Shown: positions 562 through 49,337 of the stretch, piece after piece | Numbering within the stretch: position 1 is the first letter of the stretch | Layout of the letters: each line of letters opens with the position of its first letter | Sequence record: NC_019500.1 | Source of the DNA: Escherichia phage Bp7 | Strand: one strand, 5' to 3' | DNA length: 64,000 nucleotides | Made by a program: the position numbers and the translations under genes | Notes under the pieces: model-generated | The model's input: the letters and a program-made list of their open reading frames with translations, nothing else | The model's database searches: none | Told to the model about the DNA's origin: nothing

Positions 562-1236
562 ATGTCTACAGTTTTTAATACTACCCCAGTTGATGTTTTA
601 GTCGAGCCGATGTTCTTTGGTTCAGGATTAGGTATCGCCCGTTATGATATCCAACGTCATAAAGTGTTCGAAGAGCTTTGTGAAAAGCAACTATCATTTT
701 TCTGGCGTCCAGAGGAAGTTAACTTGATGATGGACTCTGCGCAGTTAATAAGCTTCCAGAGTTCCAACAAAATATATTTACCAATAACTTGAAATATCAG
801 TCGCTTTTGGACAGTATTCAGGGCCGGGCTCCTTCTGCTGCACTCCAAGCCTTGATTTCTGACCCTAGCCTTGATACATGGGTGGCAACATGGACCTTTA
901 GTGAAACTATTCACTCGCGTTCGTATACCCATATCATGCGTAACCTCTATACAGACCCATCTAAGGTATTTGATGAAATTCTGTTAGATGACGCTATCAT
1001 GAAGCGCGCTGAATCCATTGGTCGTTATTATGATGACGTTATTGAGAAAACTAGATATTGGCAGAATGCTAAAGCTGATATTGAGTACCAAAAAGAAATT
1101 AACGCAGACGAAGATGATATTGAAGATGCCATAGAGCATGAGATGTATTGGAAACGTGAACTGATGCGTTCTCTTTATCTCTGTTTGCATGTTATCAATG
1201 CCTTAGAAGCTATTCGTTTTTATGTATCTTTTGCGT
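562..1236 (+). CDS. nrdB: Ribonucleotide reductase small subunit NrdB, exon 1 (apparent 1-nt frameshift near 745)
   Basis: [12 protein letters not shown]...EEVNLMMD in frame 1 then continues in frame 3 (...[21 protein letters not shown]...[12 protein letters not shown]); matches T4/E. coli NrdB; exon ends at T1236. Confidence 0.8.
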
Positions 1237-1310
1237 AAAATGCGCCTTTAAACGGTAACGTTTATCGAAAACTCCTTTAATTGCTGGAAAGTCCTTTATA
1301 GGAAAACTAG

Positions 1311-1337
1311 CAGCCAAGGTTTTGCTTGCACCTTTAA
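1311..1337 (+). promoter_or_regulatory. Putative middle promoter (MotA box TTTGCTTGCA, 11 nt, TATAAT) inside intron upstream of endonuclease ORF
   Basis: Sequence motif match to T4 middle promoter consensus. Confidence 0.45.
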
Positions 1338-1381
1338 TTAGTATAATATAAATATGATTATACTTTTAAGAGGATGCACAA

Positions 1382-2188
1382 TTGAACTATAGAAAAATTT
1401 GGATAGATGCTAACGGACCTATACCTAAAGATTCTGATGGAAGAACATACGAAATCCATCATAAAGACGGTAACCGTGAAAATAATGATTTAGATAATTT
1501 GATGTGCCTTTCTATACAGGAACATTATGATATACATTTAGCTCAAAAAGATTACCAGGCTTGTCATGCTATAAAGCTTAGAATGAAATATTCTCCTGAA
1601 GAAATTTCTGAATTAGCTTCTAAAGCCGCAAAATCTAGAGAAATCCAGATTTTTAATATCCCTGAAGTACGAGCTAAAAATATTGCCTCTATTAAATCTA
1701 AGATAGAAAATGGTACATTTCATCTTTTAGACGGTGAAATACAGCGTAAATCTAATTTAAATAGAGTTGCATTAGGTATACATAATTTCTCTAGAGGAGC
1801 CCATGCAAAAGTTAAAGAACGCAATATTGCAGCTATAAAAGAAGGTACTCATGTATTTTGCGGTGGTAAAATGCAGTCAGAAACTCAATCAAAACGGGTA
1901 AATGACGGTTCACATCATTTCTTGTCAGAAGACCATAAGAAAAGAACATCAGCAAAAACATTAGAAATGGTTAAGAACGGGACCCATCCTGCACAAAAAG
2001 AAATCACATGTGATTTCTGCGGTCACATTGGTAAAGGTCCTGGATTTTATCTAAAACATAATGACAGATGTAAATTAAATCCAAATAGAATTCAATTGAA
2101 TTGTCCATATTGTGATAAGAAAGATTTATCACCATCAACATATAAACGATGGCACGGCGACAATTGCAAAGCAAGGTTCAACGACTAG
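1382..2188 (+). CDS. Intron-encoded HNH homing endonuclease (I-TevIII-like), TTG start
   Basis: 268 aa; EIHHKDGNRENNDLDNLMCLSIQEHYDIH HNH motif; C-terminal Cys/His zinc-finger-like pairs; RBS aagagga upstream of TTG. Confidence 0.75.
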   Translation: MNYRKIWIDANGPIPKDSDGRTYEIHHKDGNRENNDLDNLMCLSIQEHYDIHLAQKDYQACHAIKLRMKYSPEEISELASKAAKSREIQIFNIPEVRAKNIASIKSKIENGTFHLLDGEIQRKSNLNRVALGIHNFSRGAHAKVKERNIAAIKEGTHVFCGGKMQSETQSKRVNDGSHHFLSEDHKKRTSAKTLEMVKNGTHPAQKEITCDFCGHIGKGPGFYLKHNDRCKLNPNRIQLNCPYCDKKDLSPSTYKRWHGDNCKARFND

Positions 2189-2324
2189 TCTTCGGACGTA
2201 GGGTCAAGCGACTCGAAATGGGGAGAATCCCTCTGGGATTGTGATATAGTCTGGTCTGCATAGTAATATGTAGCAGTTCATAAGAGAACGGGTTGAGAAT
2301 TAGCGAGCTCAATCGAACATAACG

Positions 2325-2827
2325 GTACCTTTAACTTCCATAAGAACATGGAAATCATGGAAGGTAATGCTAAGATTATGAAGTTCATTGCACGTGATGA
2401 ACAGCTCCACCTTAAAGGCACCCAGTACATTATTCGTCAGCTCCAACTTGGTACTGATGGCGACGAATGGGTTAAAATTGCTCAAGAGTGCGAACAAGAA
2501 GCAGTTGATATTTTCATGGAAGTTAACCGTCAAGAAAAAGAATGGGCCGCTCACCTGTTCAAAGATGGTACTTGCCCTGGATTAAATACTCAGAACATGG
2601 GTGCTTTTGTCGATTACCTGACAGTTTCTCGTATGAAGCAATGTGGCTTACCGTGTCCTATTACTGATGCTCCTACTCGCCATCCTTATCCTTGGATTCG
2701 CGAATACCTGAACTCTGATGCTGTACAGGCTGCTCCTCAGGAAGTGGAAATCAGTTCTTACCTTGTAGCACAAATTGATAACGATGTTGATGAAAAAGTA
2801 ATGGCATCGTACAAGAAATATTTTTAA
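2325..2827 (+). CDS. nrdB: Ribonucleotide reductase small subunit NrdB, exon 2
   Basis: TFNFHKNMEIMEGNAKIMKFIARDEQLHLKGTQ... to C-terminus; matches NrdB iron-ligand region. Confidence 0.8.
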
Positions 2828-2854
2828 GGAATGGGGCTTCGGCCCCTTATTGCT

Positions 2855-3268
2855 ATGAAAGAAATCGCAGACGAATTTAGCTTTATCAAGTACGTCACCC
2901 TAGAACTCCAAGATGACGCCACCATAGCTCCACTCACAGTACCAAATAAACAAAATGTCATATATGCTATAGCGGTTGATGATATACTAGTCTACGTTGG
3001 GAAGACTAAAAATCTTCGTAAGCGCATCAACTACTACCGAACCGCTATTAATCGTAAGGACCAAACGTCGGATTCGACTAAGTCCATTCTGATTCATGAA
3101 GCATTAATGGCTGGTAAAAAGGTAGAGTTCTATGCACGGCAGTGCTTTAATCTGTCGATGACTAACGAACTTGGAACTATGTCAGTTGAGACCATGTCTC
3201 TTGAAGAGCCAATGTTCATAAAGAAATTTAATCCACCTTGGAATACCCAACACCGATTAAAAGGATAA
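2855..3268 (+). CDS. denA: Endonuclease II DenA (GIY-YIG family)
   Basis: MKEIADEFSFIKY...YAIAVDDILVYVGKTKNLRKRINYYRTAINRKD; strong similarity to T4 DenA; start taken at internal ATG matching T4 N-terminus. Confidence 0.85.
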   Translation: MKEIADEFSFIKYVTLELQDDATIAPLTVPNKQNVIYAIAVDDILVYVGKTKNLRKRINYYRTAINRKDQTSDSTKSILIHEALMAGKKVEFYARQCFNLSMTNELGTMSVETMSLEEPMFIKKFNPPWNTQHRLKG

Positions 3269-15574: not shown

Positions 15575-17659
15575 ATGACCGAACAATTAAATGAAGTGTT
15601 TGAGTCCGAAGGCACACTGCCTACAGTAAACTTGAACCCAAAACTTAAAGTACCCCAGATTTGGAAGATTGGTGACGCAGAATCCCAATTAGTGGCGCGT
15701 ATGGTATCCTACGCTTCTGAAGGTGATGCTATTAAACAGGTTAAGATGGGTGATAAATATGCCCACGTTATCCTTATGAGCCTTTCAGCTAAAGGTTCGC
15801 CTGCCGAACTTAAAGGTGGCCTAGGCCCTACTCCCGTAGATGCGATTAATACTATTTTTGATGTGGTTTATGACCAAGTTAAAAAGCTTCGTATGGATGC
15901 CGTGATGTTCCGTTTCCCTACTAAGAAAATGAAAGGTCAAGGCCCTATCGTTCAACGGATTATCCAACGTTTGGTAGCACAGAAAACAGGTGGACGTTTT
16001 AAAGTAGTTCCGGCTATGTACCAATTTACCGGTAAACATACTTATATCCTAGTAGTTCGTAAACAGGCTGATATCGAAGATATCAAAGGTATGCCAGGAA
16101 TTAATGCCGAATTATACACTAAGGTAGATTCTGATGTCGGTGAAGTTTATATTTCTAAAAAAGAAGGCGTGCAGGTTACTAAAGAAACTGCTATTGCCGG
16201 CAGTATTGCTAAAGTTGAAGAACGTCGCACTGATAAAATGGTTATAACCAAGACTAAGATTTCTCGTCGTGCCATTGCAGCAAGTCAATCGTTAGAATCT
16301 TATCGTAATGAAAGTGAACTGTTTAAGAAATATGAAGCAAATGCCGTAGATTTTAATAAACCTGCAACAGCTCCATTAATCCCTGAGGCCCAGGAAATGG
16401 TTACTAATAACAATTCTCCCGCGGCTAAAAATAAGGTTGCTAATATAGTAGCTGAAGGTACTGCTGAAGAATTGCATTATGATTATAAAATGTTTCCTCT
16501 TCACGGTATAGGTGAAATCCAAGAGAAAATTAAAGATAAAATTCTTGCGGCCATCAAAAACGAACCTTTGACATCTGTTAAAGCTCTAGAAAAATATGCC
16601 TCTGCTATTAATACCGTTTTCGAAGAATACAAAGGTGAATGGCTGGCCCGGCATAACAAAACTCGTAAAGGCCAACCTGACGACCTCTGGAATGAATTGA
16701 CCGATGCGAAGTGGAAAGCCGCCAAGACCAAGTTCATTAAAAAACGTGTATATAGTTTTGCCGGTGTAGGTGGCGGTATTATGGTCGATATTACTATTGC
16801 TCGTGAGGGCTCTAAATATACCCCATCACAAAAGCGCGGCATCAGAGAATATTGTGGCTCAGGATATACAGACATAAATAATCTTCTTTTAGGACGCTAT
16901 AACCCTCAGAACTATGAGGTTATGGGCGAAAAAGATATCGAATCTGCAGTTAATAATTTGGATTCTGCTTTTGAAAATGGCGACCGTATACCAGAAGGCA
17001 TCACAGTTTATCGTGCACAGAGTATGACTGCTCCTATATACGAAGCACTAGTTAAAAATAAAGTGTTCTATTTCAGAAATTTTGTATCCACTTCATTGAC
17101 TCCTATCATTTTTGGACGTTTTGGTGTTACACACGCCGGTATCGGTCTTTTAGAACCGGAAGTTCGCGATGAATTGACAGTCGATAAAAATGAAGAAGGA
17201 ATAACTATTAATCCTAATGAAATAAGAGCATATAAAGAAAATCCTGATTATGTTAAAGTTCAAATAGGATGGGCTATTGATGGGGCTCATAAAGTTAATG
17301 TCGTATATCCAGGAAATCTCGGAATAGAAACTGAAGCCGAAGTTATTCTACCGCGTGGATTAATGGTCAAAGTTAATAAAATAACAGATGCTTCTAATAA
17401 TGATGGAACAACATCTAGTAATACAAAACTCATCCAAGCTGAAGTTATGACAACAGATGAGCTTCAAGAATCTGTGGTATATGATGGTGACGTACTAATG
17501 GAAACCGGCGAGTTGGTCGTATATAAAGATGACTTCGATACTTCCGAAAGCCCTGTATCTTTTGATTCATTTGTTAAATCTACACGGTTTGATGTATTGC
17601 CTCTTTTGGCTTCATGCATAGACCTCTATGACATCCCAGAAAAATTCATCCAAGGGTAA
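15575..17659 (+). CDS. alt: ADP-ribosyltransferase Alt (copy 1)
   Basis: 694 aa; C-terminal ART domain (RGIREYCGSGYTDINNLL..., YRAQ..., FVSTS); size and position match T4 Alt. Confidence 0.85.
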   Translation: MTEQLNEVFESEGTLPTVNLNPKLKVPQIWKIGDAESQLVARMVSYASEGDAIKQVKMGDKYAHVILMSLSAKGSPAELKGGLGPTPVDAINTIFDVVYDQVKKLRMDAVMFRFPTKKMKGQGPIVQRIIQRLVAQKTGGRFKVVPAMYQFTGKHTYILVVRKQADIEDIKGMPGINAELYTKVDSDVGEVYISKKEGVQVTKETAIAGSIAKVEERRTDKMVITKTKISRRAIAASQSLESYRNESELFKKYEANAVDFNKPATAPLIPEAQEMVTNNNSPAAKNKVANIVAEGTAEELHYDYKMFPLHGIGEIQEKIKDKILAAIKNEPLTSVKALEKYASAINTVFEEYKGEWLARHNKTRKGQPDDLWNELTDAKWKAAKTKFIKKRVYSFAGVGGGIMVDITIAREGSKYTPSQKRGIREYCGSGYTDINNLLLGRYNPQNYEVMGEKDIESAVNNLDSAFENGDRIPEGITVYRAQSMTAPIYEALVKNKVFYFRNFVSTSLTPIIFGRFGVTHAGIGLLEPEVRDELTVDKNEEGITINPNEIRAYKENPDYVKVQIGWAIDGAHKVNVVYPGNLGIETEAEVILPRGLMVKVNKITDASNNDGTTSSNTKLIQAEVMTTDELQESVVYDGDVLMETGELVVYKDDFDTSESPVSFDSFVKSTRFDVLPLLASCIDLYDIPEKFIQG

Positions 17660-19714
17660 ATGATGGAAAATTTAAACGAAGTTTTTGATAGCGATTCCGC
17701 TAAAAACTATCCAGTAATAAATCTTAAACCAGGTTCCGGTATCCCACAGATTTTCTCTATTAAAGCACCGGGTAATGATAACCTGGTTGCTCGTATGGTA
17801 TCTTATGCGTCTCAAGGAGACGCTATTAAAATGGTTAAGCCGGGCGACAAATATGTCCACGTTATTCTAATGAGTTTGTCAAGCAAGGGTGCTCCGGCTG
17901 AACTCAAAGGTGGTCTTGGTTCTGACCCACTCGGTACGCTGAATACCATTTTTGATACTGTATACGAACAAGTAAACAAACTTAAAATGGATGCGGTTTT
18001 ATTCCGTTTCCCTACCAAGAAAATGAAAGGTAAGGGCCCTACTGTTCAGCGTGTATTAGCTCGTTTGGCTATGGCTCGTACTGGTGGTAAGTTTAAAGTT
18101 GTTGATGCCATGTACCAATTCACTGGAAAACATACCTATGTTCTTTTAGTACGTCGTGGCACTAATATTGAAGATATCAAGGGTATGCCTGAAATTGATG
18201 CCGAACTTTATACTAAGGTTGAGTCCAAAGTTGGCGAAGTTTATGTTTCTAAGGAAACCGGCCAGTCCGTAAGTAAGGCCGAAGCTGTCTCGGCAAGTAT
18301 AGCTAAGGTTGAAGAGAAACGTACTGATAAGGCCGTCATTACCAAGACTAAGATTTCTCGTCGTGCTATTGCTATGTCGCAATCCTTAGAATCGTCACGA
18401 TTTGAAACTCCTATGTTTAAGAAATTTGATTCTAATGCTGCTGAATTGAATAAACCGGCTACGGCTCCTTTAATGTCAGAAGCAAATGAAATAAAGGTTA
18501 TTTCTAATTCTTTCTTGGCTTTAGAAAATACCATTAGTGCTAATACTGGTGGTATGTCGTTTAAAGACAACCTTCTTATTCCAGAAGATAAAATGGAAGA
18601 AATTAATACCGACATAAAAATGAGAGCTTTTGAGAAATTACATGGATTAAATGTGACTTCAGTAAAAGCCCTAGAAAATTATGCTTCAGTGGTTGATGAC
18701 GTCATCGAAGAATATAAAGGTCCTTGGCTTCAAAAGCTAATGGCTCAACATTCACACCTAGGTTATCACGAAGCAGTCGAGTTGGCTGAAAATTCTTGGA
18801 ATGCTATAAAGACCAAAATTATTCAACGTGAGCTGCGTGTTTACGCTCTTACCGCCGGTTGGCAATTGCATTCTATTATAGAAAATAAAGACGCGTCTCG
18901 TTATACTCCTGCCCAGAAACGTGGTATTCGTGAATATGTTGGCTCCGGTTACGAAGATATGAATAATGTTCTTTTAGGTCTCCATGACCCGAATGTAAGA
19001 AGCAGTATTCTGACTAATGAAGACATAGAAAAAGCTATCAATAACTTAGATTCTGCTTTTGAAAATGGCGAACGTCTACCACCAGGTATTACTCTTTATC
19101 GTTCCCAACGAATGATTCCTGATATTTACTTGGCTATGATTAGCAATAAAGTATTCTATTTCAGAAACTTTGTTTCAACTGCGATATATCCGAATATTTT
19201 TGGTACATGGATGACTGATTCTGGTGTTGGTCTTTTGCCTGACGAAAAACGTCGTGATGTTGCATTAGACAAATCGGATGAAGGTTTAGTATATTCGAAT
19301 AAAGATACTTTAGTAGGTATTGGTTGGGCCTTTACCGGTACAGATAAGGTAAATGTCGTTTTACCTGGTGGAGACTTGGCTCCTTCTAACGAAATGGAAG
19401 TAATTCTTCCTAGGGGTTTGATGGTCAAAATCAATAAAATTACAGATGCTTCATACAATAACGGAACTACTCGTTCTAACAATAAGTTCGTTCAAGCCGA
19501 AGTAATGACTGCAGACGAACTTAATGAAGCCGTGGTGTACGATGGTGATGCTCTGATGGAAACAGGCGAACTAGTTGTCTATAAAGAGGGTAATGAGCTT
19601 TCTTTTGATTCTTTTGTTTCTAATGAGAAGAAAAAGAAATCAGACAGAGGTCTTGGCTTGTTAGCTTCTTGTATAGATATCGACGCTCTCCAGTATAAAT
19701 TTGTACAAGGGTAG
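17660..19714 (+). CDS. ADP-ribosyltransferase Alt paralog (copy 2)
   Basis: 684 aa; collinear similarity to copy 1 along full length (e.g. RMVSYAS.GDAIK, RGIREYVGSGYEDMNNVLLG). Confidence 0.85.
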   Translation: MMENLNEVFDSDSAKNYPVINLKPGSGIPQIFSIKAPGNDNLVARMVSYASQGDAIKMVKPGDKYVHVILMSLSSKGAPAELKGGLGSDPLGTLNTIFDTVYEQVNKLKMDAVLFRFPTKKMKGKGPTVQRVLARLAMARTGGKFKVVDAMYQFTGKHTYVLLVRRGTNIEDIKGMPEIDAELYTKVESKVGEVYVSKETGQSVSKAEAVSASIAKVEEKRTDKAVITKTKISRRAIAMSQSLESSRFETPMFKKFDSNAAELNKPATAPLMSEANEIKVISNSFLALENTISANTGGMSFKDNLLIPEDKMEEINTDIKMRAFEKLHGLNVTSVKALENYASVVDDVIEEYKGPWLQKLMAQHSHLGYHEAVELAENSWNAIKTKIIQRELRVYALTAGWQLHSIIENKDASRYTPAQKRGIREYVGSGYEDMNNVLLGLHDPNVRSSILTNEDIEKAINNLDSAFENGERLPPGITLYRSQRMIPDIYLAMISNKVFYFRNFVSTAIYPNIFGTWMTDSGVGLLPDEKRRDVALDKSDEGLVYSNKDTLVGIGWAFTGTDKVNVVLPGGDLAPSNEMEVILPRGLMVKINKITDASYNNGTTRSNNKFVQAEVMTADELNEAVVYDGDALMETGELVVYKEGNELSFDSFVSNEKKKKSDRGLGLLASCIDIDALQYKFVQG

Positions 19715-20108: not shown

Positions 20109-21050
20109 CTATATTCCATTATTAATAGCACGCCCGCCGAATGTATTAACTAATCCTGTTAATCCACTAGAAGCTCCTGAAAGTCTACTTAATTTGGCCA
20201 CTGAAGAACTCAGGGAATTGCTCTCACTTATACCCGCCACGCCTTTAAGGACTTTATCTTCCAGCCATTCGTAAGCAGCCTGTTTACCGACTGCGCCTGT
20301 CTGTACACTTCTATAAGCAAATGTAACATCAAACGAAGCAATTTGGTTATCGCCGTCGTAAGATAATTCCGGGGAAGATACGCTCACAGGAACGCAACCA
20401 TTAAGCATTACTACCGTATGTGGTAATCCATTACGGGAATGAAGGTTGACTTGAATGTCAGCTTCAACATCCTCCGGTAATGCTCTTAATTGTGTAATAG
20501 GGTCTTGAACACTATTGACCCAATCATTAAAAGCACGGTAGTTAGCAGCTTCAGAATCCATACGGAAGCTTAATACTAATGGAGAATATTCTCTTCCGGT
20601 AATTTTGATGTTAGGTGAGTTGTGGTTCAAATCCATTTCATAGTTCAAAGTATTATCCGGGATTTTAACGGCGTGGACTAAAAGACCTGCCGTAGGATAG
20701 GCCATATTGAAAAAATCCATCAGATATGTACCTACTTCAAACTCCCCTAGTAAGCTCTGCACAACCCTGGATGACATAGCTCCAATCAAATATTTACTTA
20801 TGCCTGACTTACGAATCAACTTCTGAGTGCCCGCTGTCACTAATGTCGTAACACCTTGGGTCAACTCTCCTTGTGTAATACCAAACAAATCGCTATTCAA
20901 TGGGATATTGTTAAATAAAGCTCCACCGAACTGGTCGAGGAGCGTCTGAGATTTAGAAGAAGGAACTGTGGCAAATACCACACTAAACAGGTTATTCCTT
21001 TGTAGGTCAATATTAATTGCCTGATTCTGAAATTCTTGTAAAGTATACAT
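20109..21050 (-). CDS. 54: Baseplate tail tube initiator gp54
   Basis: 313 aa; order 48-54 and size match T4. Confidence 0.8.
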   Translation of the reverse strand: MYTLQEFQNQAINIDLQRNNLFSVVFATVPSSKSQTLLDQFGGALFNNIPLNSDLFGITQGELTQGVTTLVTAGTQKLIRKSGISKYLIGAMSSRVVQSLLGEFEVGTYLMDFFNMAYPTAGLLVHAVKIPDNTLNYEMDLNHNSPNIKITGREYSPLVLSFRMDSEAANYRAFNDWVNSVQDPITQLRALPEDVEADIQVNLHSRNGLPHTVVMLNGCVPVSVSSPELSYDGDNQIASFDVTFAYRSVQTGAVGKQAAYEWLEDKVLKGVAGISESNSLSSSVAKLSRLSGASSGLTGLVNTFGGRAINNGI

Positions 21051-27387: not shown

Positions 27388-27822
27388 ATGAGTAAAGAGA
27401 TTGAATATAAATTAGAGTCGTTTCAAGATGCTTTGGATGAAGATTTAAAGATTGATGGGACTCGTTTACAGTACGAAGTACAGAACAACGTTTTGCTGCA
27501 CAGCAAATGGCTAAGGCTGTATACGAATTGTAAGAAAGAAATAATGAGATTAGAAATCCAGAAAAAGACCTCACTTAAGAAGCGATTAGATTTCTACACG
27601 GGCCGTGGAGAGCCTGGTGATGAGGTTTGTATGGACCAATATGAGAAGTCTGAATTAAAGACCGTTATGGCTGCGGATTCTAGTGTAATTAAAATCGACA
27701 CATCAATTCAGTATTGGGCTTTATTACAAGACTTTTGTAGTTCAGCACTTGATGCTATTAAGGCGCGTGGTTTTAACCTTAAGACCATGCATGAGATGAG
27801 ACAATTTGAGGCAGGTAAATAA
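27388..27822 (+). CDS. uvsY: Recombination mediator UvsY
   Basis: DGTRLQYEVQNNVLLHSKWLRLY...DTSIQYWALLQDFCSSALDAIKARGF matches T4 UvsY. Confidence 0.85.
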   Translation: MSKEIEYKLESFQDALDEDLKIDGTRLQYEVQNNVLLHSKWLRLYTNCKKEIMRLEIQKKTSLKKRLDFYTGRGEPGDEVCMDQYEKSELKTVMAADSSVIKIDTSIQYWALLQDFCSSALDAIKARGFNLKTMHEMRQFEAGK

Positions 27823-28175: not shown

Positions 28176-28403
28176 TTAGAAATCTTCCTCTTCCTCGTCG
28201 TCCATCGACTCCAATTCAGCTCTCTTACCAGCCAATGCATCACGCACGCTAATATCATCCGAATCACGAAGTTCGGCTTCCTTACTACGAGTTTTGTAAT
28301 ACTTTTCCAATTCCTTCAGACCATCCATAGTCTGACAAGAACCAATTTTAGCCATGAAGCTTTCAATAGATGCTTCCTGAATAACTTCTTTAAAGGTTTT
28401 CAT
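28176..28403 (-). CDS. uvsW.1: UvsW.1
   Basis: 75 aa acidic C-terminus, located downstream of uvsW as in T4. Confidence 0.6.
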   Translation of the reverse strand: MKTFKEVIQEASIESFMAKIGSCQTMDGLKELEKYYKTRSKEAELRDSDDISVRDALAGKRAELESMDDEEEEDF

Positions 28404-29182
28404 AATATTTCCTCGAAAAATTTGGTAACCATTTTACCGTAATGCACATTAGGATAACCGGCTTTAATGGCTTCTTTTGTAAATTTACCAACTTTAAGCT
28501 TTCCTGTATTTATCCAAAGCTCTTTAAGCTCATCATACATTAACCAGTGTGGATATTTCTTAGCCAAAGTAGCTTGCCAATTTTTAGAATGGTCCTCAGA
28601 CCTAAACGATTTCTTTACACCTTTATTGGCTTTGCCAGCTTTTGAACACGTTTCATAATCTCCGGCTTTAATAGGTGTAAATCCTTTCATTGCTTTAGAC
28701 CTTTTGGCTATGGTCTCTTTGGATTGCTTGGAGCCTTTATTTTTGGTCCAAGCCTTTTCTAAAGCTTTTAATTTGGCTTCTGTTAATCCAACTTTAGCCA
28801 TAGCTTTTCGGTGTATTTCTCTTCGTTCATCAGTCCATTCATAAGAACCGTTTGTATTACCAATCATGGCTTCGCTTATTAATCTAGAAGCATTTTCTTT
28901 TAAAATGGAAATAGACCTAGAGCTTATCTCATTTAATCTTTTGCCACATGTCATACCAAATGCGGCACGCCATAATTTTCCACCTTGAGCTTTAGCCAAG
29001 ATTATATGGCCCAAAATATGTTCCCTAATAGTCAATGCAACTAAATTGTTAGGGTCATCGGAACCACCTATCGACTTAGGAATAATATGATGAATTTCGA
29101 TTTTACAGGGCGCAGTAGCTTTGGTCCATCCTCTGGACCTAGCATTCTCTATTAAATCATCGTAAATTTTCTGATAATTCAA
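28400..29182 (-). CDS. HNH homing endonuclease (free-standing, between uvsW and uvsW.1)
   Basis: 260 aa; HHIIPKSIGGSDDPNNLVALTIREH HNH motif; overlapping start/stop with neighbours. Confidence 0.75.
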   Translation of the reverse strand: MNYQKIYDDLIENARSRGWTKATAPCKIEIHHIIPKSIGGSDDPNNLVALTIREHILGHIILAKAQGGKLWRAAFGMTCGKRLNEISSRSISILKENASRLISEAMIGNTNGSYEWTDERREIHRKAMAKVGLTEAKLKALEKAWTKNKGSKQSKETIAKRSKAMKGFTPIKAGDYETCSKAGKANKGVKKSFRSEDHSKNWQATLAKKYPHWLMYDELKELWINTGKLKVGKFTKEAIKAGYPNVHYGKMVTKFFEEIL

Positions 29183-30682
29183 AGCTGCACCTCTTTCATA
29201 ACATAATTAAATTTCTCGTCGGCGTATCGTTGTATACGTTCCAATCCATGTTTCAGGCAATAATTTAAATGAACATATTTCTTTTTAGAATCTTTAGATT
29301 TAGGGCGGACTCCCATATCATCCACGAGGTCCCAGACTTGGGCCACTTGTTTGCTATCGTGCTTACGTAGAACACGCCCAATTGTTTGCAGAACAATGAT
29401 TTTAGATTTTACGCCGTGAGCAAATACAACGTGGTGAAGGTTCTTAACGGAAATACCAGTAGAGAACACACCATAACTTGCCACAACAATAATACCCTTA
29501 CCATTTTCCGCCATTACTTTCAGAGCATTACGCGTTTCGGTATTAACTTCACCTGATACGTAATAAACTTCTTTATGTTGCTCTTTAACCATTTCAAAAA
29601 GAGTTTTACCGTGTTCGATGTTTTTAAACATCAGGAATACGTTCTCTTCTTTCTTAGCGAGTTTAACAGCTAAATTAGCAACCCATTTATTACGACGAGT
29701 AGCCTTAGTAATGACCTTGATTTCTGATTGGTAATCTTTACCTTTCATCTTAACAGTGAATTCGTCTGGGTATCGAAGGAAAATACTGTTGATTTTAAGG
29801 TCGGTAACCTGTCCTTCTTCCATTAACTGGGAAGTGGATACCGGCTTAAACACATCACCAAACAAACCCATATATTGCATTAAATTAGCTTTACCATCTT
29901 TTAAAGAACCAGACAAACCGAATTTAAACATACAGTTGGTTAGGCCTTCGATGATAGTAGAAATAGATTTACCTGTAGCCAAATGGCATTCGTCGTTCAT
30001 AAACATACCGAACTGAGCAAACCATTCTTTAGGTTGCTTGATAGCAGTTTGATAAGTTGAAACGTAAATCATTGCATCAGAATCACGAGCAGTACCTGAA
30101 CGAATACCAAGCATTGCTGCTTTAGGGAACAATCGATAATCGATGAAGTCATTAATCATCTGGTCGACAAGTGCAGTAGTAGGAACCAGAATAAGGATTT
30201 TACCTTCATAGTTCTCAACGTAATATCGACTCAGGAGCGCCTGGATTAATGATTTACCTGCGGATGTAGGTAAATTCAGAATTGCACGACGTTTTGTCAG
30301 GCCGTTGTATACGGCTTCATTCTGATACCAATGAGGCTCAATCTTGGTAGACCCTGAATAAATTTCTTGAGAAGCTACCCATGAATCAAAATCTTCACGA
30401 GAAATATCTTCCTGTTCAAGAATACGCGGGTCAATCCACAGAGAATATTCAAATTGTTCAGCGAACTTTTTAATTTGAGGGACAAGTCCATAAGGGCAAG
30501 TTTACGGCAGTTACGTAATCTAGAAGAAGAAGACTTCCATCCCATTGCCCATAACGAAATTTAGGGTTGAATTTATATCCATCGGCTTCAAAGCTAAAAT
30601 AGTCTCTGAGTTCGTAGAATGTGGATTCATCACACTCAATACGAACATGACTAAAATTATCGAAATGTACTTGAATTTGCAT
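29179..30682 (-). CDS. uvsW: DNA/RNA helicase UvsW (apparent 1-nt frameshift near 30490)
   Basis: N-terminus MQIQVHFDNFSHVRIECDESTFYELRDYFSFEADGYKFNPKFRYGQWDG; after frame change continues ...PYGLVPQIKKF...LPTSAGKS...DECH...QTIGRVLR; matches T4 UvsW in two frames. Confidence 0.8.
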
Positions 30683-30737: not shown

Positions 30738-31409
30738 ATGGATACTCAATATATTGAAGAGCTTCGTGCACTCGAAGATAAAAAAGAAGCTAAAGCTAAG
30801 TTAATCGAATACGGCGAACAGTTCGGTTTAAAACTTAAGAAAACCCGTTCGTTTGATAATTTGATTATCGATATCTCTGAAGGCCTTAAAGCCCTGGCTG
30901 ATGAACCACTTCCAGAAACCGAAGGGTTGTCTATTTCTGATTTGATTGATGCTGATAACGAACTCACCGGTGGTAATGACTTTATCGAAGGTGTAGAACC
31001 AGCTAAAGAAGAAGCCACCCTGTTGTTCGATGCTCCTGAGGCTGTAGTCGAAGTCATTGAGGTAGCCGAACTTCCTAAGGTCGAGATTATTGAAGAAGAT
31101 GTCCCATTTGACGAAGAGAAATTCAAAGAGGCTGTAGCCAAGGTTGTTGAATTGGAAAAACCTGTATTCTCTTTACCTGAAAACTTCAGCCCTAATCTTT
31201 TGCTTATCGGTAAGAACCCTGGCTATTGCACCGTTCCTTGGTGGATTTACCAATGGATTTCTGAGACCCCGGATTGGAAAGAACGTCCAACTGCTTTCCA
31301 ACATCCTTCTGCCCACCAAACATTATTTAGTCTGATTTATTACATTAATCGTAATGGTTCAGTATTAGTACGTGAAACTCGTAACTCATCTTTTGTCACT
31401 TTAAAATAA
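30738..31409 (+). CDS. inh: Inhibitor of prohead protease Inh
   Basis: 223 aa; position between uvsW and hoc; size matches T4 Inh. Confidence 0.7.
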   Translation: MDTQYIEELRALEDKKEAKAKLIEYGEQFGLKLKKTRSFDNLIIDISEGLKALADEPLPETEGLSISDLIDADNELTGGNDFIEGVEPAKEEATLLFDAPEAVVEVIEVAELPKVEIIEEDVPFDEEKFKEAVAKVVELEKPVFSLPENFSPNLLLIGKNPGYCTVPWWIYQWISETPDWKERPTAFQHPSAHQTLFSLIYYINRNGSVLVRETRNSSFVTLK

Positions 31410-32291: not shown

Positions 32292-32581
32292 CATTAAAGT
32301 ACAAAATTCCTGTTTACAAGGACTCTAGTCTATGTTAAGATGGGTTTACCAACTCAACGAGAGAATTGTTATGGATAAGGTTAAAGTACATTTTTTACAC
32401 GAATCCGGGTTGAATTTTATAGAAATTGCTAAAAAAATGGGCGGGACCGCTAAGGATATGGCCAAAGCATGGGTTGATGTAGAACAAGCCTAGAGCCAAA
32501 TTTAAAGCGAAAGAAAAGGTTGTTTATCGTAAAAGATTGAACAACAAGGTTCGGCGCAAAGCGCGTTCTGGTTCAAAGTAA

Positions 32582-33710: not shown

Positions 33711-33738
33711 AGGGACCGTAAGGTCCCTTTTATTTTTC
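33711..33738. terminator. Bidirectional terminator AGGGACCGTAAGGTCCCT + T-tract
   Basis: Hairpin between convergent rnlB and gene 24 paralog. Confidence 0.6.
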
Positions 33739-35010
33739 TAAAGGCGGTAATTTTACGCCGAGATAAGAACTCAATTGACTTTGATTAGCCATTTTGTCCA
33801 TATCAGAACCATCAATAATGCGGGCTTCTTTATCGTCCTTAGCGACGGTATAAGGGTTTGCAGTCAATGCATAACGAGCAAGCAATGCTACTGTAGGTTG
33901 TAAGCTTTCCGGGTCAACAATAACCTTAAATTCACCAACTGAAGTATCACCTTCTTCGTCAACCACATTCAAACCTTCCGTATAAGGCGCATAATATAAA
34001 GATGCGACCGTCTGTCCTTCACCCATCTGGGCATTTACACCAACAATAACATAATCACATGGACTATTCATATCAGCATAAAGTGGTAGGCCATTCTTTA
34101 ATATACCATAAGCCAATTCGTCCTGGTCTTCCTTTTTCTCAACCCAACCAGAGGCGGCGAGAATAGCAGCACAACGAGAACTAGCTACTGCATAAGTCCC
34201 GGCAAAAGAAGTCTGTCGTTGGACGGCAGAGTTCATCTCACACATATAATAATATAATGTGCGAGCACGGTCCTGGGCATTATCGTAGCGAGGGTTGGTA
34301 AGGTCTAATACACCCTTTTCAGAAACACCCTGGACTTTAAAACGAGAGCTCACGGTAATTAATGACTGTAATACATCCTTATTAATTTCTTCTGCCATTT
34401 GAATGCCTAGCAGATTTTCAACGAAATTAGGAGCATTAAACCCGTTAGATTCTAGGTCTTGGGCTAATTCGACTGTCAATGAAGTTTTCAGTTTACGTGA
34501 TTTAACTTCAGATTGCCATTTGTCGATGCGGAATCCGGTTTCAGCAATTTCAGGATGGCCTTGTTCAAATTTAGAAGTAATAGCAGCATCCGACACCATA
34601 CGGATATGGCCGGCTGCCACTGCTTCAGAAATAACTTCGCTGAGGTTGGTTTCTGTGGTTCCGGCGAAAGGAGATGCTTCTAGAACTTTAAACACTACGC
34701 TTTCAAACTGGAACATATCACCGACCGCATAAGCTGTAGATGAATCAGTAAATTCTGGAATATTTTCACGTTCCGTCATACCAATCTGGCCCGCAAATGT
34801 TGCTCCACCAAGATAAGTCATTTTGTCGTCAGGGTTCAGTACACGTACCCCATACAGAGCAGCAACCGGTTGATTTGTTTTTTGTTCAGCAACTAGGGCT
34901 TTAAAGATTCGTTTATTAGTTGCTTGGGTGTATGAAAGAAGAGCAGGACGGCCAACCGAGCTGGCAGCCGTCAATGTGGATTCTTTAATTAGGTCTACAA
35001 TCTTAGACAT
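33730..35010 (-). CDS. Capsid vertex protein gp24 paralog (divergent second copy)
   Basis: 426 aa; gp24/gp23-fold conserved blocks (KSRKLKTSLTVELAQDLESNGF, YYAPYTEGL, RYALTANPYTVAKDDKEARIID). Confidence 0.85.
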   Translation of the reverse strand: MSKIVDLIKESTLTAASSVGRPALLSYTQATNKRIFKALVAEQKTNQPVAALYGVRVLNPDDKMTYLGGATFAGQIGMTERENIPEFTDSSTAYAVGDMFQFESVVFKVLEASPFAGTTETNLSEVISEAVAAGHIRMVSDAAITSKFEQGHPEIAETGFRIDKWQSEVKSRKLKTSLTVELAQDLESNGFNAPNFVENLLGIQMAEEINKDVLQSLITVSSRFKVQGVSEKGVLDLTNPRYDNAQDRARTLYYYMCEMNSAVQRQTSFAGTYAVASSRCAAILAASGWVEKKEDQDELAYGILKNGLPLYADMNSPCDYVIVGVNAQMGEGQTVASLYYAPYTEGLNVVDEEGDTSVGEFKVIVDPESLQPTVALLARYALTANPYTVAKDDKEARIIDGSDMDKMANQSQLSSYLGVKLPPLEK

Positions 35011-36293
35011 TAATCAGCCTCGTAAATAATTGCCGGAAGTTTAACGCCAACCAGATAAGACATATTGCTCTGTCCAGCCATTAAATCCATATTGGTTGCA
35101 TCGATAACACGAGCTTCTTTATCGTCTTTAGCCACGGTGTACGGGTTAGCTGATAGTGCATAACGAACCATCAGAGAAATAGAAGGTTGTAATGAATCCG
35201 GGTCAACAATAACCTTATAAGCACCGACGTGTTCTTGGTCATCTAAATCTAAGCCTTCGGTATAGGGAGCGTAGAAAATAGAACCGACAACTTCATTACC
35301 GCCGTAATTCTCTTTAACACCAACGGTAACATAATCTAATGGACTGTTAACGTCACAAAACAGAGGCAGACCATTCAACAAATATCCGTATGCAGTTTCC
35401 GGAAGCCAATTATTATCTTCGGGTTTATGTTTTAACCAGCCAGAACCTGCAAGCATTGCAGCCACACGACTTGAAGCCACAACAAACGTGCCAGAATAAG
35501 AAGTAGTTTTCTGGATTTCAGAATTCATCTCACAAACGAGTTCATAAAGTTTACGTGCAGATTCAGGAGCACTGTCATAAGACAAATCGATGATGCCGTT
35601 ATCAGATACACCAGTAACTTTATAACGTTTGGATACGGTTATTAGAGATTGCAGAACGTCTTTATTAATTTCATCTGCCATTACTGTAGCCAAGAGGTCT
35701 TCTAAGAACGCCGGCGCGTCAAAGCCATTTGATTCCATATCCTGCGCTAATTCTACAGTCAAAGCCGTCTTCAATTTACGGGTCTTAACCGGAGCATTCC
35801 ATTTATTAACCTGGAATACGGCATCAGAGATTTCTACATCACTCGCTTCAAATTTAGTGGTATGGGCAGCATCAGGAACCAGACGACATGTTAATGACAC
35901 TAAACCTTCTTGAAGAGCATCAGCCAATTCTGTGGCGCTAGTGGACGCGAGTGGGCTTGCTTTAAGAGCCTTATAAACCACATTCTGATACTTGAAATAT
36001 TCACCCTGAGCAATCGCCTGGGCCTTATCTGTGAGTTCTGGGATAGTTTCACGGTCTTTAGAACCAACTTCACCACCATAAGAGGCACCTGTCTGGAAAC
36101 TAAATTCATTATCAGGGGTAAGATATTTGACACCATACAGTGCAGCAATAGGCTGGCTAGTACGTTGTTCGGCGATAATATCACGGTAAATCAATTTGGT
36201 TGTAGCACGGGTCAAAGCAACAAGATTAGGGCGACCCAATGAGTTGCTGGAAGTAGTTGTTGACTCGCGCAGTAATTCGTTAATCTTTGCCAT
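35010..36293 (-). CDS. 24: Capsid vertex protein gp24
   Basis: 427 aa; MAKINELLRESTTTSSNSLGRPNLVALTRATTKLIY... matches T4 gp24. Confidence 0.9.
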   Translation of the reverse strand: MAKINELLRESTTTSSNSLGRPNLVALTRATTKLIYRDIIAEQRTSQPIAALYGVKYLTPDNEFSFQTGASYGGEVGSKDRETIPELTDKAQAIAQGEYFKYQNVVYKALKASPLASTSATELADALQEGLVSLTCRLVPDAAHTTKFEASDVEISDAVFQVNKWNAPVKTRKLKTALTVELAQDMESNGFDAPAFLEDLLATVMADEINKDVLQSLITVSKRYKVTGVSDNGIIDLSYDSAPESARKLYELVCEMNSEIQKTTSYSGTFVVASSRVAAMLAGSGWLKHKPEDNNWLPETAYGYLLNGLPLFCDVNSPLDYVTVGVKENYGGNEVVGSIFYAPYTEGLDLDDQEHVGAYKVIVDPDSLQPSISLMVRYALSANPYTVAKDDKEARVIDATNMDLMAGQSNMSYLVGVKLPAIIYEAD

Positions 36294-40201: not shown

Positions 40202-40446
40202 TATTCGTCGTCCTCGTCATCATCCGCATCGTCAGATTCTTTTTTGTCTTTCTTATCTGCTTTATCGGATTTTTCGTCGTCTTCGTCATCTTCGTCAGCT
40301 TCTTCGCCTTCAATCATAACGGAGCGAGCAATTTCTGCTTTACGGGCTTCAATCAAAGCGGTTACTCGAGATTCGATAAGCGGGGCTGCTGCTTTACGAA
40401 CTGCTACGAGGTCGTTTGATTTAATAGCTTCGATTAAATCTTCCAT
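40201..40446 (-). CDS. 67: Prohead core protein gp67
   Basis: 81 aa with poly-acidic C-terminus; synteny. Confidence 0.75.
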
Positions 40447-42019
40447 TAGAAATCCTCTTCTTCTTCATCTGGGTTTTGGAAACGAGCCTCTTTAGACTCT
40501 TCTTCAATTTGCTTAGCTTCTTGATTAATTTCTTCGTCGGTCATTTGGAGGAAATCTTTCATAGCCGTTTGATGTGAAATGTACTTACCAATAAATGGTT
40601 CAGCCATCGTTAGCATATTGATTCTGCGTTCCATGATTTCAGCATCTTTCATTTCACTGAAATAGCTATCACGGTTAAACGTAACTTTAATATTATTTAT
40701 TTCCTTTTCCCACTCATCTTCTGTAATAATCTTTTTAAGAATGAGGTTTGTTTTTAACGGGTCTAGGAAAATTTCTTCAAATTTGTTTTGTAGTTGACGA
40801 ATCCATTTAGAGAATTTTAATTCGTCACGAGTGATTGCTGTACCGGCATCAAACATAACACCAGAATTAGACTCGCTAGGGATACGTGATTCAGGAACAC
40901 GCAACGCACGGTAAAGTGCTGTGCGGAAATAAAGAACGTCATCCATATCACTCATACCAGTAGCACCTGGCATTGTATCAACTTCTGTTACCGCTTTACC
41001 ATCACGACGTTGCAACCAATAGTCTTCAGTCATGGACATATTGTGTTGTTGGTTTTTAATTTTACCTGTCGAAGCATCATACACCACACGGTTTTTCATC
41101 GTGTTCATGATATGTTGCATTTGTGCTGCAGCCTTACGTGAAGGCATATTACCTGTATCGATATAAAACACACGACGGTCAGGAGCACGTGTAATACGGT
41201 AGATGACCATTGCGTCTTCCATCAATTTAAGCTGGTTTGCAGGCTTAATAGCACGTTGCAAATAGCCAATGATGTTTTTACCACAACAATCTAATAATCC
41301 AGAATGAGCATAAACCACTGCAGCACGAGGAATTTTAACTTTAGTCCCGGCTGAATAAATGCGTCCATCTGCGCAATAGCTTTCATGACCTGTGTCGTAA
41401 ACGAAAAACTCGCGATATCCGTCTACAACTTTAACGCCATCTTCCATACGTGTAACGATTTCACGAATATATTGGACTTGGCGTGGGTCTAAGCGACGAA
41501 GCTCTTGTACGCCATCTTTCATTTTTTTAGGGTTTATAATTTTATGAAAGAAAATTCTTGAGTCTACATACCAGCGTTGGAAATGGTCAGTGCCTTTACG
41601 TTGGAAATTTAAAAGGTTTAAAACTTCACTGAATTCGGCCAAGATTTTATCTTTAATTGCTTGACTAAATTCTGTCCCGTCTAAATTCAATGCAACTACT
41701 TCTTTATCATCTCATAGACAATAGCGTCAGACACAATTTCCTGTACGGCGTTGTCGACTTCATAGTTGTTCATTAAATTACGGTAGGTATCAATAAGTTC
41801 CCTGGTATTTTTAACTTCAGGCTCATTACTACCAAACATCTGTTGCATAAGAGCATTATAAGGAATATTTTGCTCTTGTGTCTCAATTTCGCGAGCGCCA
41901 TCATCAAGCTTAGGTGCGGTGACAGACTCTAAATTGTTATTAATTTGTTGTTTGAATTCTTTTTCGTCTTCATTAGCCCATGGCTTAAGAAAACTTAATA
42001 TTGTATTAAAGTTTGCCAT
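40446..42019 (-). CDS. 20: Portal vertex protein gp20 (apparent 1-nt frameshift near 41711)
   Basis: Two adjacent ORFs (41696..42019 and 40446..41690) together match T4 gp20 end to end; break falls between ...[10 protein letters not shown] and [11 protein letters not shown]. Confidence 0.85.
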
Positions 42020-42076: not shown

Positions 42077-42658
42077 TCATTCATTTTCATGTTTGTGATA
42101 ACGTGTTATAGCCGAACGAGTTGATTCAACACCACAGATAGGGCAAATCATCCTTGGCTGATTAATCTTTTTGCCTTTAGCCGGATGTTCTTTACCAAAC
42201 ATCGGATTACCTTCACCAGACATAGCTTTGGCTTGGTCTGGTCGCTTACGTCCTTTTAGAGCTTTAGAATGTTCAGGCCTCTTTTTACCTAACCTACAAT
42301 CTCTTTGTAGCTGTTTGGCATGTTCACTCATTGGAATCCCTTTACGAGACATTCCAAAGAACCCGTCAGGCTGAGCTAATGACATATTTATATAGTTTTT
42401 AGATTTAACTACATTATACTTTATTTGAAGCTCTTTCTCAGCTATACGAGCTTCTTTATCGGTTTCAAATAAAGATAAAATTCTGGTTTTGAAAAGGTGC
42501 GGATTTTCTTTACGTTCTAGATTCCAAATCTTTTTATATGCTTGGGATAATACAGAACCATTATATCCTTCTTTGAGAATCCTTTCAACGTATGTTGAGC
42601 CAATATAACGACGGGGTAGTTTAGACCCCGTGTATATGGTTAAGTAAGTACAATACAT
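42077..42658 (-). CDS. GIY-YIG homing endonuclease (Seg-like), free-standing between genes 19 and 20
   Basis: 193 aa; N-terminal TYLTIYTGS...RRYIGST GIY-YIG motif; Lys/Arg-rich DNA-binding C-terminus. Confidence 0.7.
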   Translation of the reverse strand: MYCTYLTIYTGSKLPRRYIGSTYVERILKEGYNGSVLSQAYKKIWNLERKENPHLFKTRILSLFETDKEARIAEKELQIKYNVVKSKNYINMSLAQPDGFFGMSRKGIPMSEHAKQLQRDCRLGKKRPEHSKALKGRKRPDQAKAMSGEGNPMFGKEHPAKGKKINQPRMICPICGVESTRSAITRYHKHENE

Positions 42659-43254: not shown

Positions 43255-43926
43255 TCATGATAGTTTTCCATTTGGTTGTTTTGATTCAATCATATTTATA
43301 AGAGTTTTTAAGCTCATCCCACAGCCATCTGATTTGGAAAGATTTTCTTCCCACGGAATAATTTGCAAGTTACAAATATGGCCTATATGTTCTGCGGGTA
43401 TTTTATTATCATAACCAAATTTCTTAGATATTATATGGTCTAATTGATAAGCACCTTTGACTCCGCACTTGCCTATTTTAGTAAAATTCTTCATTTTACT
43501 TATTTCATTTCTATATTTATACTGATGACGCTTGACATCCATACAATATTTATGATATTTTTTCTTATCAATCCAGTGTTCTTTAGATTTGAGACCTTTA
43601 CCTGTTCTATTTTTGGAAATTTTAGGCCCTTTGGTTTTACGGATTTTTATGCCTTCATCAGAATTCCAATATTCTTTTCTTGTTTCTGAATAGACTTCCC
43701 AGCGATGTTCTTTACAGAACTTAGAATTTGTTTCATTAAGACGTCCTTTTGTTACAGTATAATAAGTGCCACATTTATCACATTTACATGTAACAGCAAT
43801 TTTTCCAGGACAATCTTCTAATTTTATTAAATGAGAGCTTCCACTTTTAACTTGATATCCGAGATTTTTAAAAGCAGAAACATTGCGATTCGTTATAGGT
43901 ATTTCAAATAGAGTATTAGTAATCAT
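43255..43926 (-). CDS. HNH homing endonuclease, free-standing between genes 18 and 19
   Basis: 223 aa; QLDHIISKKFGYDNKIPAEHIGHICNLQIIPWEENLSK HNH motif; Cys-rich N-terminus. Confidence 0.7.
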   Translation of the reverse strand: MITNTLFEIPITNRNVSAFKNLGYQVKSGSSHLIKLEDCPGKIAVTCKCDKCGTYYTVTKGRLNETNSKFCKEHRWEVYSETRKEYWNSDEGIKIRKTKGPKISKNRTGKGLKSKEHWIDKKKYHKYCMDVKRHQYKYRNEISKMKNFTKIGKCGVKGAYQLDHIISKKFGYDNKIPAEHIGHICNLQIIPWEENLSKSDGCGMSLKTLINMIESKQPNGKLS

Positions 43927-49248: not shown

Positions 49249-49337
49249 CAAAACAATGTAGCGACGCAGCGATGAATTGTACCAGTGGCCAAAAATAAAT
49301 CACCTCTCAAAATGGCGCACCATGCGCCATGTATTAT

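Follow-up and report, generated by a model that had tools for sequence, protein, structure and literature searches.

A private scrambled patch breaks the uvsW frame in the Escherichia phage Bp7 record and is probably a sequencing or assembly artefact

UvsW of bacteriophage T4 is an SF2 RNA-DNA/DNA-DNA helicase. In the genome record of Escherichia phage Bp7 (NC_019500.1) the corresponding gene cannot be read in a single frame, which raises the question of whether the phage has lost the helicase, reads the gene by an unusual route, or has been recorded incorrectly. Here we address this question in the window, that is, the whole stretch of 64,000 nucleotides that was analysed. From comparison with related phages we conclude, with a probability of about 0.78, that the uvsW break at 30496-30535 is a sequencing or assembly artefact and not a property of the replicating phage.

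BLAST searches of a phage collection placed the window within Dhakavirus, the JS98/WG01-like T4-type coliphages, at 96-98% identity over tens of kb, and its orientation is opposite to that of WG01 and UGJNEcP3. None of the collections searched contained an identical record. Around uvsW the genes are arranged as hoc, inh, uvsW, an HNH homing-endonuclease gene, uvsW.1, uvsY.-2 and uvsY. UGJNEcP3, JS98 and WG01 have the same neighbourhood, with the HNH gene as its variable member, and uvsW occupies its conserved genome position beside inh and upstream of uvsW.1 and uvsY. The features of this region are:

30738..31409, inh, neighbour of uvsW in conserved position
30470..30682, minus strand, uvsW piece 1, 70 codons and TAA, holding most of UvsW_N (open reading frame and translation)
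29179..30492, minus strand, uvsW piece 2 in the +1 frame, 437 codons and a stop, holding the end of UvsW_N and the complete SF2 helicase core
28400..29182, minus strand, free-standing HNH homing-endonuclease gene between uvsW and uvsW.1 (Pfam HNH, E = 6e-6)
28179..28403, uvsW.1, in conserved position with uvsW upstream
27388..27819, uvsY, in conserved position with uvsW upstream

An earlier sequence-only reading had claimed that the N-terminus of UvsW runs into a stop on the minus strand, and that the next conserved block and the helicase motifs lie in the adjacent frame. Both statements hold. The open reading frame 30682..30470 begins MQIQVHFDNFSH, finishes GQWDGSLLLLDYVTAVNLPLWTCPSN and is closed by TAA at 30472-30470, its final ~20 codons falling within or beyond the patch described below. 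The +1 frame, translated over 437 codons, reads TCPYGLVPQIKKF and continues through PTSAGKS, DECH and QTIGRVLR to a stop at 29179-29181. As written, uvsW therefore has no uninterrupted frame of ~498 codons, since the stop at 30472-30470 leaves the remainder in the +1 frame.

The same reading had named the gene as uvsW, and the domain content and structural match agree. Piece 1 matches UvsW_N (Pfam PF21241, E = 1.6e-29) over profile positions 2-60 of 81, positions 61-81 match the start of piece 2, and ResIII, DEAD and Helicase_C are all found in piece 2, so that the domain order UvsW_N, ResIII/DEAD, Helicase_C is that of T4 UvsW (PDB 2OCA, 1RIF). Motifs I, II and VI of the SF2 core are present as PTSAGKS, DECH and QTIGRVLR. 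The joined product aligns with T4 UvsW (PDB 2OCA) over its full length, residues 1-500, with E = 1e-254. Judged by domain content, full-length similarity and synteny, the gene is a T4 UvsW orthologue that lacks only the intact frame; its Dhakavirus counterparts are EpJS98_0180 in JS98, gp185 in WG01 and UGJNEcP3_00027. Since every relative has a single 498-aa protein that both halves match, the break is not an artefact of chance open reading frames.

The first ATG, GTG or TTG in the frame of piece 2 stands at 30159, downstream of the Walker A motif (motif I, PTSAGKS), and a restart within this piece therefore could not give an active helicase. On its translation, the sequence as written does not encode a functional UvsW. 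The position of the start codon also bears on the idea of a natural split gene, in which a 70-aa N-terminal domain and the helicase core would act as two cooperating proteins. The break does lie near the end of UvsW_N, at profile position 60/61 of 81, but it is inside that domain and not between domains, a split uvsW occurs in no relative examined, and any restart product would be without the ATP-binding loop. With no start codon ahead of motif I, a split gene is excluded.

We then compared the break with five relatives, namely UGJNEcP3, JS98, PSD2002, WG01 and the Logan contig SRR25011262. In these alignments it coincides with one further feature:

~30496-30535, minus strand, private scrambled patch of uvsW, with 7 extra bases and 3 substitutions relative to the five relatives

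The extra bases lie at ~30496-97, 30507-09 and 30514-15 (net +7); alternative alignments place them in three blocks (2, 3 and 2) or in two (5 and 2). The private substitutions at 30528, 30532 and 30535 turn CGT ATT CGT into AGT CTT CTT, replacing R49, I50 and R51 by S, L and L. In the relatives the loop reads GGA CGT ATT CGT CTT CTx GAT TAx AAx CGT AAA CTx CCT TAT GGA, translated as W-D-G-R-I-R-L-L-D-Y-N-R-K-L-P-Y-G, whereas the window has GGA AGT CTT CTT CTT CTA GAT TAC GTA ACT GCC GTA AAC TTG CCC TTA TGG A. Compared with T4 UvsW and its Dhakavirus orthologues, the frame of the window is broken after codon 62 by this private net +7 nt patch, and the loop conserved as WDGRIRLLDYNRKLPYGL in T4 and the Dhakaviruses reads WDGSLLLLDYVTAVNLP/YGL.

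The sequence-only reading had attributed the break to a single extra T. Deleting one T from CCCTTATGG (30496-30488, minus strand) does reopen the frame, giving one open reading frame of 500 codons without an internal stop, and to this extent the proposal stands. As a model of the lesion it is too simple, given the net gain of 7 nt and the substitutions over ~40 nt with respect to the five relatives. The segment DYVTAVNLP, which had been taken as UvsW sequence, is partly an out-of-frame reading, and the codons of the ancestral N-R-K-L can still be read in the third frame, as RNCRKLAL in the open reading frame 30375..30545. The one-T repair would consequently yield a protein with a mutated conserved loop and not the native UvsW, its VTAVN segment being out of frame.

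Within the patch the new sequence is built from local repeats, namely (CTT)4, and CGTAACTGCC and then GTAAACTTGCCC. A templated conversion from elsewhere in the window was considered by searching k-mers of the patch against both strands of the window, and was rejected: 19 10-mers were shared where ~9 were expected, none of them near the patch, and there was no longer template. A natural alternative loop allele carrying a single error was likewise rejected, the patch being absent from 1217 UvsW-bearing phage records and partly out of frame. Translational bypass of the gene 60 type between two GGA codons was dismissed because the take-off codon is not followed by a stop and because the relatives have this GGA...GGA pair in frame.

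The frames join at CCC-UUA, and slippage of tRNA-Pro at CCC-N is established. Programmed +1 frameshifting, in which peptidyl-tRNA-Pro would slip from CCC to CCU and full-length UvsW would be made from two frames, was weighed for this reason. The CCC-U would let tRNA-Pro re-pair in the +1 frame, and a CCC followed by U where the frames join is what the window shares with prfB-type and CCC-N programmed sites; the downstream frame is, moreover, perfectly conserved at the protein level. In other respects the window is unlike such sites: the shift is not conserved, the A site holds neither a stop nor a hungry codon, and an upstream Shine-Dalgarno stimulator and a structure are both missing. Every relative examined has a single 498-aa open reading frame without the extra bases, the A-site codon UUA is neither a stop nor a known hungry codon, nothing resembling a Shine-Dalgarno stimulator lies upstream, and the RNA structure at the shift is ordinary (fold z = -0.38). 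A trans-frame product would also keep SLL in place of RIR, together with the out-of-frame VTAVN, in a loop that T4 and all Dhakaviruses have in identical form, and the lesion is young enough to account for the conserved downstream frame. Programmed +1 frameshifting at uvsW is essentially excluded.

The patch is private to one record, and close relatives are intact. Exact-protein look-ups of the 70-aa uvsW fragment, of Inh and of Hoc gave no match. Among the best 30 phage records listed, every full-length match spans 99 nt against 106 in the window. As an exact match, the patch string was absent from IMG/VR (two patterns), from JGI metagenome contigs and from GTDB genomes; BLAST gave no match to the uvsW region in complete E. 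coli genomes, and the patch was not found among the matches listed for INPHARED phages. The loop peptide produced by the one-T repair was matched in none of the 1217 UvsW-bearing phage records at more than 81.8%, a value given by the canonical loop. A Logan contig carrying an HNH protein identical to that of the window has an intact 498-aa uvsW and an intact 24.3.

Outside the patch, the UvsW protein of the window is 100% identical to that of UGJNEcP3. Over 488 codons the two genes show 50 synonymous nucleotide differences and 0 non-synonymous ones, and all 8 differing columns of the UvsW alignment fall inside a 12-column stretch at the patch. This pattern indicates that both halves of uvsW were translated and under purifying selection throughout the divergence of the two phages, and hence that the lesion is either extremely young or not real.

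An extremely young lesion would mean a genuine and viable uvsW-null phage, in which codons 49-60 were scrambled, and the frame displaced, very recently through a complex event of slippage, duplication or repair. We regard this as unlikely, though it deserves far more weight than frameshifting or a split gene. The frame is indeed broken as written, without an in-frame start before Walker A and so without an active helicase; the repeats of the patch, (CTT)4 and a near-duplicate of CGTAAACTGCC, are what slippage or template switching would yield; and the ratio of 0 non-synonymous to 50 synonymous differences fits a very young null allele. The gene is dispensable in T4, where established genetics show it to be non-essential, and a null allele would be tolerated. 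Loss may even be of advantage, as UvsW helicase activity triggers the type III-A3 Retron-Eco11, and T4 mutants that escape this retron all carry frameshifting uvsW deletions (PMC12746101). These escapers resemble the window in having a truncating uvsW frameshift, and they demonstrate that a T4-type null is viable and can be advantageous. They differ from it in kind, however, as the reported escapers have simple deletions in the motor domain (PMC12746101), while the lesion of the window is a patch of insertions and substitutions in UvsW_N that occurs beside a lethal-looking portal frameshift. Unlike in the escapers, there is no sign of selection for the uvsW lesion of the window, and a second sequence with the patch was found in none of the collections searched.

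The portal frameshift came from a comparison of the annotated proteins of WG01 and IME281 with the window by tblastn. Nearly all proteins matched in a single frame at 95-100% identity, many of them being 100% identical to WG01. Leaving aside a few accessory genes that are divergent or absent, only uvsW, the gp20 portal, 24.3 and nrdB departed from this pattern. Besides uvsW, the affected features are:

41696..42019, minus strand, N-terminal piece of portal gene 20, with the remainder at 40446..41711
32371..32494, plus strand, gene 24.3 homologue (DUF2774), cut at codon 41 (69 aa in relatives)
562..1238, plus strand, nrdB exon 1, split into 562..792 and 789..1238

Gene 20 has lost 1 nt at 41711 (CC to C, plus strand), a private deletion that puts everything beyond codon 103 of 524 into another frame, and residues 1-103 of WG01 gp20 accordingly match frame -1 and residues 104-524 frame -3. 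The flanks of the deletion are otherwise 100% identical to WG01 and UGJNEcP3, both of which have the extra base. Eight records listed for this site each showed 99.2% identity and a span of 122 nt against 121 in the window, and 19 records had an identity of at least 99%. The gene 24.3 homologue is closed by a change of AAG to TAG at 32491, accompanied by a 1-nt insertion at 32494; this combination is private to the window, the best relatives spanning 120 nt against 121 in the window and none being identical. Neither the portal lesion nor the 24.3 lesion is present in any relative listed. In nrdB one T has been lost from a TTT run at ~744-746, where KIT01, AnYang and IME281 read CAGTTTAAT and the window reads CAGTTAAT, and the relatives span 576 nt in this region against 575 in the window. 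The nrdB exon 1 region as a whole is only ~92% identical to that of other Dhakaviruses.

Two further differences were considered as lesions and set aside. A 24-nt insertion with a stop in gp54 (20126-20149) is common to UGJNEcP3 and represents a natural C-terminal variant. The patch at the gp14/gp15 junction (49258-49315, minus strand, +2 nt) occurs at 100% in Salmonella phage ABTNLS3 and at 99.2% in MX01, and from these matches is a natural divergent allele. At this junction an ATT preceded by an in-frame TGA stands where relatives have the ATG start of gp15, and the next ATG or TTG lies ~17 codons downstream of the homologous gp15 start. A connection between the lesions and homing-endonuclease genes was also rejected: these genes number at least five in 64 kb, so that the presence of one within 0.4-1.3 kb of three of the four lesions is not significant.

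The record holds other private lesions, in gene 20, nrdB and 24.3, that are biologically implausible. T4 genetics established gene 20, the portal gene, as essential, and a genome with its frameshift cannot make heads. Because of this, no viable phage could have its portal gene frameshifted at codon 104 of 524, and either at least one of the four private lesions is an error of the record or the genome is non-viable. The reading of uvsW as a genuine null is weakened by the same lesion: since the window also carries a private frameshift in an essential gene and private breaks in two others, private indels of this record need not be biological and are not to be taken at face value.

If the patch were nevertheless real, the phage would be a natural or passage-derived UvsW-null Dhakavirus, perhaps selected by helicase-sensing abortive-infection systems of its host such as type III-A3 retrons, with the other lesions being unrelated errors or belonging to minority defective genomes that entered the assembly; we hold this fuller account to be slightly less probable again than a recent uvsW loss as such. 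Such a phage would be expected to be sensitive to UV and hydroxyurea and to show deregulated use of R-loop origins. Its allele could be neutral under laboratory conditions, or could be favoured because UvsW activity sets off an abortive-infection defence such as a type III-A3 retron. It would be an instance from the field of a T4-type phage that has lost the helicase, of moderate interest in view of the UvsW-triggered retron defence, and the uvsW allele would still be an ordinary null mutation.

We favour an error of the record, given that the patch is private, that conservation around it is perfect at the protein level and that three other private frame-breaking lesions occur in the window. 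A local base-calling, consensus or assembly error would have scrambled ~40 nt of a normal, recently selected uvsW; in the true phage UvsW would be intact, with its 498 aa and the canonical WDGRIRLLDYNRKLPYGL loop. Such an error could stem from a stretch of low quality, from long-read consensus errors on hydroxymethyl-C DNA, or from incomplete polishing of the assembly. The private patch, its conserved surroundings and the three other lesions are seen directly in the alignments; from them we infer a technical cause. The suspicion of an error voiced in the sequence-only reading is strengthened by the other three frame-breaking lesions, all of them private and one affecting the essential portal gene.

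One-base contraction of a homopolymer is a classic signature of sequencing error, and two of the four lesions are of this type, in short homopolymers (TTT to TT and CC to C). In being private lesions of conserved genes, those of the window resemble the indel and consensus errors of phage records, such as homopolymer miscalls and unpolished long-read consensus. The uvsW and 24.3 lesions are unlike simple homopolymer length errors, being multi-base and mixed. Several points count against an artefact, among them that a real uvsW null would be tolerated, as noted above. The uvsW patch is complex, with 7 inserted bases, 3 substitutions and local repeats, and is not a typical single homopolymer miscall; a real slippage, template-switch or repair event could have produced this form instead. 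The rest of the window is also very clean, which indicates a low overall error rate of the record. With four private frame-breaking lesions in otherwise perfectly conserved genes, an imperfect sequence is the simplest account.

The uvsW break holds no new biology and should be classed as a probable artefact. In this record uvsW, gene 20, nrdB and 24.3 should be flagged as probably mis-sequenced, and should not be annotated as pseudogenes or recoded genes. The record should not serve as evidence for loss of UvsW or for programmed frameshifting in T4-like phages.

The TTG start of the HNH gene (28400..29182) overlaps the uvsW stop, and this gene is part of the context and not of the lesion. It is present in UGJNEcP3/4 and absent from JS98 and WG01. 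A protein identical to the HNH protein of the window was found on two Logan contigs; one of them extends as far as the patch region and has no lesion in it. Over 29217-29419, at its 3' end, uvsW departs from WG01 to an unusual degree, as a co-conversion tract would be expected to.

The nrdB gene is interrupted by an insert of ~1.09 kb (1239-2326, plus strand) that contains a 268-aa HNH_3 endonuclease open reading frame (1382-2188) and a sub-threshold Rfam match to group I introns (2033-2273; 34 bits, E = 1.3e-6). This insert looks like a mobile intron of the I-TevIII type; in IME281 nrdB is an uninterrupted gene of 392 aa. Directly after nrdB follows a 145-aa GIY-YIG endonuclease open reading frame (2831-3268, plus strand), with 97.8% identity to an IME281 protein annotated as 'endonuclease'.

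Two more open reading frames are extra with respect to WG01, and both are probably further homing endonucleases. The one between genes 19 and 20 (42077-42658, minus strand, 193 aa) has a weak SegE GIY-YIG match. The other, between genes 18 and 19 (43255-43926, minus strand, 223 aa), has no Pfam match and carries an HNH-like DH...N motif. Elsewhere in the window, two Alt-like ADP-ribosyltransferase genes stand in tandem (15575-19711, plus strand) against three in relatives, and a tandem pair of gene 24 head-vertex genes is present (33733-36293, minus strand), as in WG01.
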